From an uncultured Clostridia bacterium (GTDB lineage: Bacteria > Bacillota > Clostridia > TANB77 > CAG-508), in assembly GCA_947623285.1 (NCBI GenBank), contig CANQGP010000004.1, positions 74,965 to 138,964 of the forward strand: a DNA stretch of 64,000 bases, written 5' to 3'. Positions 8,256 through 61,392 of this stretch are shown in pieces; positions within the stretch are counted from its first letter, which is position 1; each line of letters opens with the position of its first letter. The notes below the pieces were generated by a model. It made no database searches and was not told the origin of the DNA. It was given only the letters and a program-made list of their open reading frames with translations. The translations under genes and the position numbers were made by a program.

Positions 8256-9182
8256 ATGTATTATGTCTATGAAAATGACAAGCTTAGTAAGTATGAAAGG
8301 TTTTTCAGAACCTTTTTTTATCAAGTATGGTTAGAAAATAATCGAATACAAGTTGTATCTATTCCTAGGTTGAAATTGTTTGAAAAAGAAAATGGTCATA
8401 AATTAGCAAAAAGAAAAGATGTAATTAAGCGAAATCAATTAATACAAAAAATTGCTCAAAAAACTGTAAAAATATTAAATAAAACAAAGAGCAATAAAAT
8501 AATTGTAAGTAAAGAATTATTAAATGAAAAACTTTTTATCAATTATCTATATAGTCAAAATTTAGATATAGTTAATGGAAAATTTTTATTTAAACTACTT
8601 GTTCCTGAGATTTTAAGTTATTTGATAAAGAAAACTAATATTTCAGAAGAAGATTTAAAAATAGCTATTTTAGCTAATGATGTTAATGAAATTGTTTTAG
8701 GTAATATTAAATTATTAATACATAAATATAAAAATATCACTATAGTTACTAGACATGCTATGAAACTAAAAAACTTCCAAGAATCTCTATATGATAAAGA
8801 AGGTATTGTAATAGCGATAACAAATAATAAAAGAAATGCTTTGAACAAAGCTAATATTATATTTAACTTTGACTTTCCAGAAGAATTATTAAATAAATAT
8901 ACGATTTTTGAGTATGCTAATATAATAAATTTAGATAATAATGTTAAGATTAATAAAAAAAGATTTAACGGTGTAAATATCAATGATTATGAAATTGAAT
9001 TAAATAATAATAATTTATTAGATTTAGTAAATTATAATGAAATCATATTAGAAAAAAATTTTATCAAAAATTTATATGAAGCAAAATTATATAAAAGACA
9101 AAGTTTTGAACTTCTCAGAAATACTATACAAAAGGATAATGTTAAAATAAGGTATTTAATTGGAGAAAATACTAGATTTTAA
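8256..9182 (+). CDS. Hypothetical protein (308 aa, Asn/Lys/Ile-rich)
   Basis: Long ORF with SD gaggtg 6 nt upstream of the ATG. I recognise no motif except a degenerate Rossmann-like stretch, KIAILANDVNEIVLG. Confidence 0.5.
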   Translation: MYYVYENDKLSKYERFFRTFFYQVWLENNRIQVVSIPRLKLFEKENGHKLAKRKDVIKRNQLIQKIAQKTVKILNKTKSNKIIVSKELLNEKLFINYLYSQNLDIVNGKFLFKLLVPEILSYLIKKTNISEEDLKIAILANDVNEIVLGNIKLLIHKYKNITIVTRHAMKLKNFQESLYDKEGIVIAITNNKRNALNKANIIFNFDFPEELLNKYTIFEYANIINLDNNVKINKKRFNGVNINDYEIELNNNNLLDLVNYNEIILEKNFIKNLYEAKLYKRQSFELLRNTIQKDNVKIRYLIGENTRF

Positions 9183-9196
9183 AATCTAGTATTTTC

Positions 9197-10093
9197 TCAT
9201 AACACTATATCTCTTTTTAATAATTCCTGTTCTACTATTCCTGTTCCGATAAATTTTTTATTTAAATAAATTCTATATACTCCATCTTTTTTATTTTTTT
9301 GAGTAAGCTTAACTCCATTTATAAAATGTTTATATTTGTTTTCTTGTAATTCAATTAGTGGTTCGTTTTGAAATAATTTCTCAATATCAATGAAAGATTT
9401 TGAAAAATTACTTTTGAATGTTTCTAAATCTTTTTTTGAATTATAAATTTTTTCTAGTTCTTCAATTGTAATAGACTGACTTAATTTAAAATTACCTACC
9501 TGAACTCTTTCAAGTTCTGTCATGAATCCATAAGTTCCTAATTTGCTTGCTAAGTCTTCACACAAACTTCTTATATATGTGCCTTTTGAACATTTCACTG
9601 TAAATTTAATTTGTTTTTTATCTTTGTCTATTCCATTAAGTTTAATATTATATATTTCAATTTCTCTGGGTTCTACTTTTACTTGAATTCCTTTTCTTGC
9701 ATATTCATATAGTTTTTTACCTTTTATTTTTATTGCAGAATACATTGGTGGTACTTGCTTTTGTTTTCCTATAAATTGATTTAATGTTTTTTTGACTGTT
9801 TCTATTTTCAAAATTTCATAATCAACTTCTTTTTCTCCAACAATGTTTCCCTCTGCATCTGCCGTATCTGTTTTTTTGCCTAATTCTAAAGTTACATTAT
9901 ATATTTTATCATGATTAATTAAATATTTTGAACACAAAGTTCCTTTGCCAATTAAAAGAGGCAACACTCCTGTTGCCATTGGATCTAGTGTACCTGTGTG
10001 TCCCACTTTTTTATTAAAAATCTTTTTAACTTTATATACTACATCGTGTGAAGTAATTCCTTTAGGCTTATTAACTATAATAATTCCGTCCAT
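9197..10093 (-). CDS. truB: tRNA pseudouridine-55 synthase
   Basis: GHTGTLDPMATGVLP catalytic-Asp motif, plus synteny with rbfA and infB. Confidence 0.9.
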   Translation of the reverse strand: MDGIIIVNKPKGITSHDVVYKVKKIFNKKVGHTGTLDPMATGVLPLLIGKGTLCSKYLINHDKIYNVTLELGKKTDTADAEGNIVGEKEVDYEILKIETVKKTLNQFIGKQKQVPPMYSAIKIKGKKLYEYARKGIQVKVEPREIEIYNIKLNGIDKDKKQIKFTVKCSKGTYIRSLCEDLASKLGTYGFMTELERVQVGNFKLSQSITIEELEKIYNSKKDLETFKSNFSKSFIDIEKLFQNEPLIELQENKYKHFINGVKLTQKNKKDGVYRIYLNKKFIGTGIVEQELLKRDIVL

Positions 10094-11145: not shown

Positions 11146-11303
11146 TTTTATCTTTCCCCTTTGTATTTATATTCAGCGCAAGATGCTGATTATTTTAATT
11201 CAAAAAAGAATTGATATATTACAAGGCAAACGAATTTAAAATCAATGAGGCATACTATTTGTACGTTGATTTGATTTTAAATGAAGTTTAACGAAGTAAG
11301 ATA

Positions 11304-11681
11304 TTAATTATCTTTTGAATTTTTTGGCATAATATCCTTTAGGATAGAATCAATCTTAAACCCATACTCAATCGAATCATCCAATTCAAATATCAATTCT
11401 GGTGTGTTTCTTAGATTAACTCTTTTAGCAAGTTCTGAACGTATAAAACCAGAAGATTTTTTTAAACCTGCTAATGTATTTTTTACATTCTTAGAGTTTA
11501 GTATGCTAACATATACCTTTGCATATTTTAAATCAGTTGTTACTTTTACTTTTGTAACACTAATTAACCCTGTAACATTAGGATTCTTTAATTTTTGGTC
11601 TATAATGTAACTTAATTCTTTTCTATATTCTTCGTTTATACGACCAAATCTAGCACTATTTTTATCTGCCAAGTAATTCAC
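11304..11681 (-). CDS. rbfA: Ribosome-binding factor A
   Basis: RbfA-like sequence (RINEEYRKELSYII...VTKVKVTTDLKYAKVYVS) located immediately downstream of infB. Confidence 0.85.
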   Translation of the reverse strand: MNYLADKNSARFGRINEEYRKELSYIIDQKLKNPNVTGLISVTKVKVTTDLKYAKVYVSILNSKNVKNTLAGLKKSSGFIRSELAKRVNLRNTPELIFELDDSIEYGFKIDSILKDIMPKNSKDN

Positions 11682-25470: not shown

Positions 25471-25540
25471 TTTATTTCTCCTTTTCTATTCTTTTCAAGT
25501 GTAATTATATCACTGTTACAGAAATTTGTAAACAAGAATC

Positions 25541-25578
25541 TGACCCACTTATGCAATCAAAAATTGCTTAGTGGGTCA
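25541..25578 (-). terminator. Hairpin downstream of the pilin-like gene
   Basis: tgacccact / agtgggtca outer stem with an inner gcaat / attgc stem, followed by a modest T-run. Confidence 0.5.
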
Positions 25579-25595
25579 AATCCTTGTTTTATTTA

Positions 25596-26012
25596 TTAAT
25601 CTTCATTTTCTAATAATTCCACTGATACAGAGGCTGCTTCATCTATTTTGTATTCTCTTCCACTTGGCATTACTATTGTTAGTCTTATTGTACCATCAGA
25701 ATTTGTAGTTTGTGTAACAGTTGCAGTTTCAAGTTCTTCACTTATATGTAGTGCTTCTTCTAATGCTTCTGCTGTAACTACAGACTTTTCTTTATCATTT
25801 TCATATAAATCTACTATTACTGCAGAATATGCCATTCTTATTTTTGCCATTTCATTTGCTATTTCTGTTTCTAATCCTGCATTATTTGCTTTTGATAAAA
25901 TTCCATTATTTCCAAGTAATATAGCGAGTGTCACTCCTGCTATTATAAGTAAAACAATAATTGTGATTATTAATGCTATTAGAGTAATACCTCTATTATT
26001 GGCTTTTTTCAT
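25596..26012 (-). CDS. Prepilin-type (class III signal peptide) pilin-like protein, orphan
   Basis: N-terminus MKKANNRG|ITLIALIITIIVLLIIAGV, a G-x-TLI cleavage/methylation-type motif with Ala at +5 instead of Glu. Confidence 0.7.
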   Translation of the reverse strand: MKKANNRGITLIALIITIIVLLIIAGVTLAILLGNNGILSKANNAGLETEIANEMAKIRMAYSAVIVDLYENDKEKSVVTAEALEEALHISEELETATVTQTTNSDGTIRLTIVMPSGREYKIDEAASVSVELLENED

Positions 26013-32718: not shown

Positions 32719-32746
32719 TTCATACTTCCTTTTATATTTTACTTAG

Positions 32747-32837
32747 GAATTATGATATATTAATATCGATAAAGCCAAGACCCTGATTGTGTCACCCCAG
32801 CTATGGTTTGGCTAGAGATATTAATATATCATAATTC
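32747..32837. repeat. Structured palindromic element, copy 1 (21-bp perfect arms plus a 49-nt conserved core)
   Basis: Arms are gaattatgatatattaatatc (32747-32767) and gatattaatatatcataattc (32817-32837). The core at 32768-32816 matches 61286-61334 at 46 of 49 positions. Confidence 0.85.
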
Positions 32838-32869
32838 TATAGTCTTTTTATTAATTATAAGTTAATAAA

Positions 32870-48956: not shown

Positions 48957-50441
48957 CTATTTTTTATCGGCTTTTCCACCTTTTTTCTTTACAATAATTA
49001 TTCCTGTTGCTACTGCTACAAGTACAATTAATGTAATTACAGCCCATGCTACAGAGTGGTTTGCACCTGTTTTAAATGGATTTAAATTGTCTAATATTGA
49101 ACCTTTTCCTTTATCAGGATCCTCTGCACTCCAACCATTGTTAGTTCCACCTGGATTTGATGTTGGTGATGAACTTGGCTCAGAACTTGGTTCAGCACTT
49201 GGCTCTGTTGTAGGTTCTGATGATGGTTCTGTACTTGGCTCTGATGAAGGTTCCGTTGATGGTGTAGTACTTGGTTCAGTACTTGGACTTGTTGAAGGTT
49301 CTGTTGATGGTGTAGTACTTGGCTCAGTACTTGGACTTGTTGAAGGTTCTGTTGATGGTGTAGTACTTGGCTCTGTACTTGGACTCGTTGAAGGTTCCGT
49401 TGATGGAGATGTTGTTGGCTCTGGACTTGGATTAACTGGCTCGCTTGTTGCCAATATTTGAAGTCCTGCTTCTTCTCCTACTTTATCTGTATGAGATTGT
49501 TCATCTTCTCCTGTGTATGTTACATACATTTCAACTCTATATGTAGCACCTTCCTCTAAATTTTCTTCAAATTTTACTGGTTGTTCTAATTTTTCTAAGT
49601 CTTGTTTTGAAATTGTCTTTGTTTCAACTGGGTCATCTTGACCTTCTTTGTACAATTTTATTTCTATATTTGTTAAAGAATCTGTTTCATCTCCTACTTC
49701 AAAATATGTTGATATCATAGGTTTATTGTCTTGTCCTTCAATAACATTTGTTTCAACTTCTGCGTTAAAACTTGTTATTTGTGGAGCTGATTTTAGTATT
49801 ATTCTTCCTTGATATAGATTATCTGATTCTACCTTTATTTGTTCTGATGAATGTGATAAAGATGCTGTTTTTGAGAATGTGTCTATTGCTTGTATTGCAA
49901 CTCCTGATGTTCGTGGTGTTGCTGTTGTTGTTTGTTCACCTTCTCCTTCTTTATGTGTTTTTATATATATTGTACCTAATTTTACACTATCTATATCTTC
50001 ATCATCTTTTAAATGATTTAATTCTTTTGTTCCAACATAATATAAGTTCATTCTTTCTTCTATATTTCCTGTTGTTTCATCTTTAGCTTGTTCTGTAACT
50101 CTAACTTCATTAAGCTCAGGTTTTCCTTCTTTTGTTAGTTCTTCGTTCCATTCAAAGCTTGAATCGAAACAGTCTGCTATATCTACTTCCAATCCAACTT
50201 GAAAGCTTGCTATACTTGATGTATCATGCATTCCAAGATACACGTCAACTTTTTCATATGTATCTTTTTCTGTTGCATTATTTATTTCTGCTTCTTGGAA
50301 ATATATACTTGAATATGGTCTTGTAACAGTTTTTGCATTTTCATTTATTTTATTTACATTTGCCAAAACAAAACCTGCTATTGCTATAATAAGTATTGTT
50401 AGAGATGCTAATATTACTTTTTGTTTCTTGTTTATTTTCAT
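48957..50441 (-). CDS. Surface protein with a cohesin-like N-terminal module, a Pro/Thr/Ser/Glu linker and a C-terminal sorting-signal-like anchor
   Basis: N-terminal TM/signal segment and a beta-rich module ([23 protein letters not shown]...VKLGTIYIK). ([16 protein letters not shown])x3 repeats. C-terminus is NPFKTG, a hydrophobic helix, then [10 protein letters not shown]. Confidence 0.65.
49249..49392. repeat. 48-bp tandem repeat x3 (plus a partial fourth) encoding the PT-linker
   Basis: The units 49249-49296, 49297-49344 and 49345-49392 differ at only a few positions. Confidence 0.9.
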
Positions 50442-61186: not shown

Positions 61187-61212
61187 AAACTCCTCTTTTC
61201 TTAAACTATTGT

Positions 61213-61241
61213 ATTATATGCTTGTCTATTTCAATTTATGC
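61213..61241 (-). promoter_or_regulatory. Sigma-E-like promoter directly upstream of spoIIIAB
   Basis: On the minus strand: GCATAAA, a 14-nt spacer, then CATATAAT. Against the Bacillus sigma-E consensus kmATAww-14-CATACAhT, the -35 matches 7/7 and the -10 matches 7/8. Confidence 0.5.
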
Positions 61242-61262
61242 TATATATTTATTTTTTTAATT

Positions 61263-61357
61263 AAAAAAGCTAATATATTAATATTGATAAAGCCAAGACC
61301 CGGATTGTGTCGCCCCAGCTATGTTTTGGCTAGAAATATTAATATATTAGCTTTTTT
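61263..61357. repeat. Structured palindromic element, copy 2 (23-bp perfect arms plus the 49-nt conserved core), shaped like a bidirectional terminator
   Basis: Arms are aaaaaagctaatatattaatatt (61263-61285) and aatattaatatattagctttttt (61335-61357). The core at 61286-61334 matches 32768-32816 at 46 of 49 positions. A6 and T6 runs form the outermost arm positions. Confidence 0.85.
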
Positions 61358-61392
61358 GTATAAATATAATTTCTTTAATGATATTAATCTTT

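Follow-up and report, generated by a model that had tools for sequence, protein, structure and literature searches.

Small palindromic repeats of bacteria, including MITEs (miniature transposable elements with inverted repeats), have been the subject of several reviews (PMC2229807, PMC10969869). The closest analogues of the element described here are the Correia/CREE, RUP/BOX, ERIC, and REP/BIME repeats. Correia elements have a TA duplication, ~26-bp terminal repeats, and an IHF site. REPs measure 20-40 nt, carry a GTAG-type head that is conserved, and are associated with a RAYT gene of the Y1/HUH type. We analyzed a stretch of 64,000 nucleotides (the window) from an uncultured Clostridia bacterium (contig CANQGP010000004.1, positions 74,965 to 138,964), which contains two copies of a hairpin element at positions 32747-32837 (copy 1) and 61263-61357 (copy 2). 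In each copy, a 49-nt core is clamped by a perfect AT-rich stem, of 21 bp in copy 1 and 23 bp in copy 2. The host species is one of the uncultured gut Clostridia and is represented by few metagenome assemblies. The element is likely the central hairpin module of a non-autonomous, MITE-type mobile palindromic repeat present in some of these bacteria.

Evidence for mobility comes from the complete copies of the repeat in the genomes of two distantly related uncultured gut Clostridia. When the alignment was extended outward, these copies proved to be 140-155 bp long, with the left end GTTACAATTCAG… and the right end …CTGAATTGTAAC, and both terminal inverted repeats were observed in 53 copies. The 8-bp direct flanks are perfect in 18 of the 53 and match at seven of eight positions in a further nine, that is, in 27/53 copies compared to 2/53 in a shifted control; with a one-base offset allowed, matching flanks are seen in 34/53. 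An example of the target duplication is provided by a copy in L148, which has ACTTTTAT on both sides. The two genomes richest in copies, the metagenome-assembled genome (MAG) BRZ_PK__bin13 and the Hadza MAG CAKPRQ01, belong to sister species with orthologous genes 88-97% identical. In all four of their orthologous spacers with matchable flanks, the site is filled in one species and empty in the other, and hence no copy is kept at an orthologous site in the four comparisons. Nested insertions are also present. Terminal repeats, 8-bp duplications, and filled/empty polymorphism are defining properties of MITEs, here found in the full-length copies. Together with the hundreds of copies, they support one of the three roles proposed in the initial annotation, that of a REP/MITE-like mobile palindrome.

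The family was searched with a 22-nt core pattern, an arm-only pattern, and a covariance model derived from ten copies. The core pattern matched metagenome contig L089, BRZ_PK__bin13 (seven exact cores), and the Hadza MAG, and the arm-only pattern matched at least 120 8-kb tiles among the matches listed. The covariance-model search of related genomes envisaged in the initial annotation revealed a large family: at least 142 copies were detected in 652 kb of BRZ_PK__bin13 and 41 in the 269 kb sampled from the Hadza MAG, BRZ_FD__bin6 has one, and the window has its two, or 186 copies over the sampled DNA (133 + 53), including copies with diverged cores. In the first two genomes the density is about one copy per 5 kb, and all family copies are intergenic. 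The GC-rich matches L088 and L094 and the Pelobium tile L203 were discarded as chance similarities. The first exact core pattern had no matches in GTDB genomes, because the inner helix differs there. Contig L089 breaks off inside the element, and ends of the same kind are seen among Logan, metagenome, and MAG contigs (L006:1, L007:1, L215:3408, L089:1, and L095:1). Since several short-read contigs start or stop in this way, the repeat fragments assemblies of these genomes.

The module combines AT-rich arms, a 6-9-bp inner helix, and a GC-richer asymmetric core in a total length of 75-95 nt. In the BRZ_PK and Hadza MAGs, the arms differ in sequence (…GATATATAGCTATTT) and are again complementary, and the inner helix AGCCAA/TTGGCT is replaced by AGTCAA/TTGACT or AATCAA/TTGATT, that is, by compensatory changes. 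The ATATATTAATAT arms of the window copies recur in one subfamily of BRZ_PK. A 35-nt part of the copy 2 core, CAAGACCCGGATTGTGTCGCCCCAGCTATGTTTTG, is identical in BRZ_PK__bin13 copies, for example in L096:6125-6231. The MurB proteins of the window species and BRZ_PK are only 46% identical, and a search of 80 holA loci (560 kb in total) from closer relatives of the window species gave no copy. This combination of patchy occurrence and an almost unchanged core points to a horizontally spreading element; sharing of the family by organisms whose housekeeping proteins are less than 50% identical implies horizontal spread.

Both window copies were picked up by a repeat finder, and a 33-nt core pattern occurs twice in the window, with 0.00 occurrences expected from 100 shuffles. 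A covariance-model scan of the whole window with filters off yielded no copies beyond these two. The initial annotation described copy 1 as a perfect 21-bp stem around a 49-nt core that recurs elsewhere in the window with 46 of 49 identities, and this description is accurate, the cores differing at 3/49 positions. The change of the pair adjoining the core from C:G in copy 1 to T:A in copy 2 was confirmed, as was the presence of the 6-bp inner helix AGCCAA/TTGGCT in both copies. The claim that the arms of copy 2 are different and yet perfectly complementary is correct as regards complementarity (23/23 pairs), but only the outer 8-10 bp are copy-specific, whereas the inner 12 bp (ATATATTAATAT) are common to both copies. 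In the left arm of copy 1, the copy-specific part is the outer 8 nt, GAATTATG; the inner 12 nt, ATATATTAATAT, and the following C are shared with copy 2 and also with the AT-arm subfamily of BRZ_PK__bin13. Directly outside the shared module, each copy has its own perfect palindrome, GAATTATG / CATAATTC in copy 1 and AAAAAAGCTA / TAGCTTTTTT in copy 2. The core of copy 1 contains the stretch CAAGACCCkGATTGT...AGCTATGkTTTG, conserved throughout the family. The positions of these parts and of related features are listed in Table 1.

The genes around the window copies have core housekeeping content. As stated initially, both copies lie between co-directional minus-strand genes, those for RuvC (PF02075) and the DNA polymerase III delta subunit (PF06144) in the case of copy 1 and those for SpoIIIAA and SpoIIIAB in the case of copy 2. 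The proposed comparison of orthologous ruvC-holA spacers demonstrated that the closest relatives lack the element, their spacers being only 22 nt (L009) and 55 nt (L225) long. Similarly, the spoIIIAA-spoIIIAB spacer of the relatives L222/L223 has 58 nt and no element. Judging by where the homologous flanks resume, the extra DNA at copy 2 amounts to ~146 nt, compared to 95 nt for the hairpin; this is the size of a full-length family member. Relatives above 77% (HolA) or 83% (SpoIIIAB) identity were not found in the protein collection. We also considered the outer arm as an inverted copy of the target, given a 12-nt inverted match between the empty spacer of L009 (ATAATTCTATAG) and the flank of copy 1, and dropped this explanation because the motif is not kept in the second relative, L225. 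A different conserved hairpin, TTGTATAcGAAAAAATC-[CATATAGGGTCAAGATAGAAGTA]-GATTTTTTCtATACAA, is found in the ruvC-holA spacers of several related species, L011 (2925-3000), L027, L029, L034, and L036; it may be an orthologous regulatory structure or a member of another repeat family.

Table 1. Positions of the hairpin copies, their host spacers, and related palindromic shells (window coordinates unless a contig is given).
Feature	Position	Strand	Details
Copy 1, left arm	32747-32767	+	gaattatgatatattaatatc
Copy 1, core, 49 nt	32768-32816	+	inner helix AGCCAA (32773-32778) / TTGGCT (32808-32813)
Copy 1, right arm	32817-32837	+	gatattaatatatcataattc; 21/21 complementary to 32747-32767
Copy 2, left arm	61263-61285	+	AAAAAAGCTA + ATATATTAATATT
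Copy 2, core, 49 nt	61286-61334	+	46/49 identical to copy 1; inner helix 61291-61296/61326-61331
Copy 2, right arm	61335-61357	+	23/23 complementary to 61263-61285
ruvC-holA spacer hosting copy 1	32719-32869	-	151 nt here
spoIIIAA-spoIIIAB spacer hosting copy 2	61187-61392	-	206 nt here
Copy 3, same species	L217:14124-14211, L216:14124-14211		~3.2 kb past the left end of the window; 22-bp arms, diverged core
~200-bp shell with its own core	L097:6880-7110, L149:3260-3500, L190:1680-1920		
~200-bp shell with the hairpin module	L092, L095, L109, L176, L166		

A natural scenario is that full-length copies would be mobilized in trans by a DDE-type transposase, and that the window copies would be derivatives whose termini were lost or have diverged; the ~146 nt of extra DNA at copy 2 would fit such an origin. 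Complementarity of the arms would be kept, and paired differences between copies would arise, through arm-arm recombination or template switching, and selection for hairpin-proficient master copies may have contributed as well. The reason to assume recombination or template switching between the arms is inversion of the core. The same species has a third copy, in the divergent spacer that separates a hypothetical gene from a PBP gene. Comparison of strains with 99.4-99.7% identity shows an exact reverse complement of its 45-nt core and unchanged arms. Further, among the 47 full-length copies that could be scored, the core is flipped relative to the asymmetric outer shell in eight (~17%). Inverted repeats that form hairpins are known to undergo small loop inversions passively. 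Variation is concentrated in the unpaired linkers and in the apical 4-5 nt, which are hypervariable (133 copies have 83 apical variants), and the paired parts are conserved. Such variation would be consistent with mutual correction of the arms by recombination or template switching and free mutation of the exposed loops. Copy 3 is adjoined, upstream of the PBP gene, by a 34-nt tandem repeat, aaaatataaatagtt.atataaa.cttcttgt.g, with three units in L217:14215-14320 and two in L216:14215-14286.

Several observations weigh against a MITE-type origin. No terminal inverted repeat or target duplication is recognizable at the window copies, where searches gave nothing above chance; the sole hint of termini is a weak match, with three edits, to the AT-type terminal repeat at 61229-61241 (p ~0.05). 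No autonomous partner or transposase with matching ends was found in the ~0.9 Mb sampled. The window species has at least three copies, all within the ~90 kb sampled. Terminal repeats are absent from 36/133 family copies, in which the module has diverged no further than in complete copies and only 0.06 arm pairs per copy are broken; such pristine hairpin-only modules are not predicted by simple decay of old insertions. Since the same module forms the center of at least two different outer shells, it may be a unit in its own right. Finally, individual copies may have a function at the RNA level.

Other candidates for a parent element were rejected. Pairs of terminal repeats 0.2-4 kb apart, tried as ends of a parent insertion sequence, proved to be ordinary genes or two independent small copies. 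Clustering of multi-copy open reading frames (ORFs) produced only orthologues between the two MAGs. A BLAST search of plasmids and phages with the full-length element and exact-pattern scans of viral contigs returned no match.

No part of the family is more persistent or better conserved than the hairpin, which may be able to spread on its own. Conceivably, although with a low probability, the conserved hairpin as a whole (arms, inner helix, and asymmetric core, with its flipping loop and hypervariable apical 4-5 nt) is an independent genetic unit, which would either move by itself via a hairpin or single-strand route targeting palindrome centers or be carried as selected cargo by different transposon shells between distantly related gut Clostridia. 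In a more specific and also unlikely version, the module itself would be mobile without terminal repeats or duplications, by REP/RAYT- or IS200/IS605-like HUH transposition or by template switching, and would land in the centers of palindromes, the shells being its invaded hosts. Apart from the abundance of pristine copies without terminal repeats, this version would account for a second, unrelated palindromic shell of ~200 bp in BRZ_PK__bin13 (…GCAGAGTAAAACTATTCATAATAAAATAGAGTTAGAAGTTCTTAATATTTTTTACGG…), the center of which is either its own 29-nt core, AAAGAGTTCAAGTTTACCTTGGAAGGGTG, or the identical module. It is also consistent with an AT-arm copy nested inside the core of another copy, with a module-less shell (L106 6455-6522), with the copy-specific perfect palindromes directly outside the shared module in both window copies, and with the variability of linkers and apical nucleotides next to conserved paired parts. 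However, none of the sampled regions contains a gene for a Y1/HUH transposase or a RAYT-like protein, and neither the size nor the GTAG-type head of REPs is seen. The outer-arm variants of BRZ_PK are common to many copies and behave as subfamily features rather than target-derived sequences, a deletion between short direct repeats explains the module-less shell equally well, and the extra DNA at copy 2 is ~146 nt and not 95 nt.

Another explanation is selection of the element as a cis-acting structured RNA that, for example as an RNase III site or a barrier to 3'-exonucleases, would control processing or stability between cistrons and so tune the relative expression of ruvC/holA and spoIIIAA/spoIIIAB. 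An intercistronic structured RNA was among the roles considered in the initial annotation. Its location in the window, between co-directional operon genes, speaks for such an RNA, and the predicted folding is extremely stable on either strand (-35 to -38 kcal/mol; z = -7.3 to -8.8; 0/200 shuffles equally stable). Family copies lie closer to the stop of the upstream gene (median ~57-67 nt) than to the next start (~130 nt). On the strand that reads GACCC, the inner helix is lengthened by an invariant G.U, and there are slightly more G.T than A.C mismatches (39 vs 22). In addition, stem-loops between genes determine operon stoichiometry in Clostridium cellulolyticum (PMC4423207).

The RNA explanation would also be supported by covariation, which the arms and the inner helix show strongly: base pairing holds in 97% of cells and both partners have changed in 18 pairs, a level attained by none of the shuffles (0/500). 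The initial annotation interpreted the paired change between the two window copies as covariation preserving structure. The signal is real; however, inverted-repeat DNA elements produce the same signal as RNA structure. Thus, for an element that is a DNA palindrome, compensatory changes in a long stem do not suffice to infer RNA structure.

Other features of the family argue against an RNA as the primary explanation. Between co-directional genes, the GACCC strand is sense in 50 cases and antisense in 36 (p=0.16), and 33 further copies are in divergent or convergent spacers. The G.T excess and the invariant G.U are the only hints of strand asymmetry, and the window transcribes the opposite strand. 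The same spacers are empty in relatives, all four sites compared in the sister species are polymorphic, and the full-length copies have terminal repeats and target duplications. No terminator-like site or tail was found at copy 1 or copy 2, and their AT-rich stems of 21-23 bp with a 49-nt interior differ from the short GC-rich stem-loop and U-tract of an intrinsic terminator. The whole window has no Rfam 15 match at the gathering threshold, in agreement with the initial remark that the element was not recognized as a riboswitch, a ribozyme, or a tRNA-like structure, and permissive Rfam searches of the window and a full-length copy gave only sub-threshold matches resembling eukaryotic miRNA precursors or generic AU hairpins. 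The core is inverted between near-identical strains in an unchanged context. Mixed orientations, empty orthologous sites, and core inversion point to DNA-level palindrome dynamics rather than a selected RNA, and we regard the latter as quite unlikely.

Least of all, it is very improbable that the repeat is an inverton, with arms serving as recombinase sites and core flipping toggling the neighboring genes, as the exact inversion at copy 3 in a divergent promoter region 1.2 kb from an Xer-like tyrosine recombinase gene and the flipped cores of full-length copies might suggest, because the segment is just 45-49 nt long and bounded by its own symmetric inner helix, so that flipping alters little, because that recombinase is of a generic XerC/D type and scores below equivalog cut-offs, and because copies 1 and 2 have no recombinase gene close by and show no inversion, with a single orientation in five assemblies. 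A promoter-like signal, TTGGCT-N16/18-CATAAT, present on both strands of copy 1, was considered and rejected, being neither above shuffles nor conserved across subfamilies.

The preferred interpretation as a mobile palindromic repeat leaves room for effects on expression of the host operons. Both window copies should be co-transcribed within their operons and, according to the predicted folding, form a perfect RNA duplex of 21-23 bp. In principle, such a duplex could be long enough for cutting by RNase III or could act as a barrier affecting mRNA stability; in Neisseria, the transcribed Correia hairpin is bound or cleaved by RNase III (PMC2649163). Any such effect would probably be a by-product and not the reason for existence of the element. 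The ribosome-binding site of holA is outside the hairpin, and its occlusion is therefore not expected.

The window and its surroundings contain several other features. A weak covariance-model match (29 bits) at 25520-25600 coincides with an unrelated nested hairpin at 25530-25589, which has a different core, 20-bp arms AAACAAGAATCTGACCCACT/AGTGGGTCAAATCCTTGTTT, and an inner GCAAT/ATTGC stem. Another clamped-core element, with a sequence unrelated to the one studied here, is located at 11197-11321; it consists of 26-nt arms (85% complementary) and a 73-nt center with an inner palindrome of its own. A perfect 36-bp palindrome without a spacer, GAGAAAATACTAGATTTT / AAAATCTAGTATTTTCTC, is at 9163-9198. 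A tandem repeat with a 12-nt period and ACTTGGTTCAGC-like units (49137-49443) falls within a long minus-strand ORF and presumably encodes a repetitive, low-complexity protein segment. Finally, ~1-3.4 kb past the right end of the window (L214:4813-7209; also L003/L004 1-2142), there is a 798-aa ORF with an Exo_endo_phos domain (EEP/APE-type nuclease) and the group II intron-type reverse transcriptase domains RVT_N, RVT_1, and GIIM. For a group II intron-like reverse transcriptase of bacteria, such a fusion is unusual.

The element is not a novel riboswitch- or ribozyme-like RNA, and a tempting false lead in annotation is removed. What emerges is a repeat family, very abundant in some MAGs of uncultured, AT-rich gut Clostridia, which fragments short-read assemblies and inserts in essential operons. 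Its less usual traits are modular nesting, pristine hairpin-only copies, and strain-level loop inversion, and these make it suitable for studies of palindrome maintenance and rearrangement in a natural setting. The same family may be useful for establishing how often insertions are co-opted for mRNA processing. To judge from the searches, the family has not been described before, sharing no sequence with anything searched.

Comparison with known systems places the repeat among several families. Plastid hairpin-loop inversions and bacterial invertons resemble it in having a short spacer between inverted repeats and both orientations among close relatives. Plastid loop inversions are passive polymorphisms of unique loci, and invertons are recombinase-driven promoter switches of ~100-700 bp. 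In contrast, the present repeat is dispersed, its flipping segment is a core of 45-49 nt, and nothing indicates that it works as a switch.

The REP/BIME repeats of Enterobacteria and Pseudomonas are likewise high-copy extragenic palindromes between co-directional operon genes, with compensatory changes in their stems. They have no target duplication, as is the case for the window copies, and their RNA stabilizes the upstream mRNA. Unlike REPs, the module described here is 75-95 nt long with an asymmetric conserved core of 29-49 nt, and its complete copies have terminal repeats and 8-bp duplications. No RAYT/Y1 gene was found in the Pfam-annotated neighborhoods of the partly sampled genomes, and the repeat does not fit the REP/RAYT system in the features compared.

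The pneumococcal RUP/BOX/SPRITE repeats, ERIC, and bcr1 of Bacillus cereus are palindromic or modular intergenic repeats of ~100-150 bp that form stable hairpins if transcribed, and they have a similar subfamily structure and lineage-specific bursts (PMC3049150, PMC10969869). They differ from the present family in sequence and in host clade. To our knowledge, a central hairpin that occurs in different shells or alone, with a flipping loop, has not been described for any of these.

Similarity to the CREE/NEMIS elements is seen in the size of ~100-155 bp, the absence of coding potential, the terminal inverted repeats, the conserved core, and the hundreds of intergenic copies (PMC2649163, PMC2229807). 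In both cases copies are often co-transcribed with their neighbors, and their presence or absence differs between strains. Nevertheless, there is no sequence similarity, and the window copies lack termini. The present repeat is distinguished from the Correia family by the 8-bp duplication, by the terminal repeat GTTACAATTCAG, and by a central hairpin that is its most conserved part.

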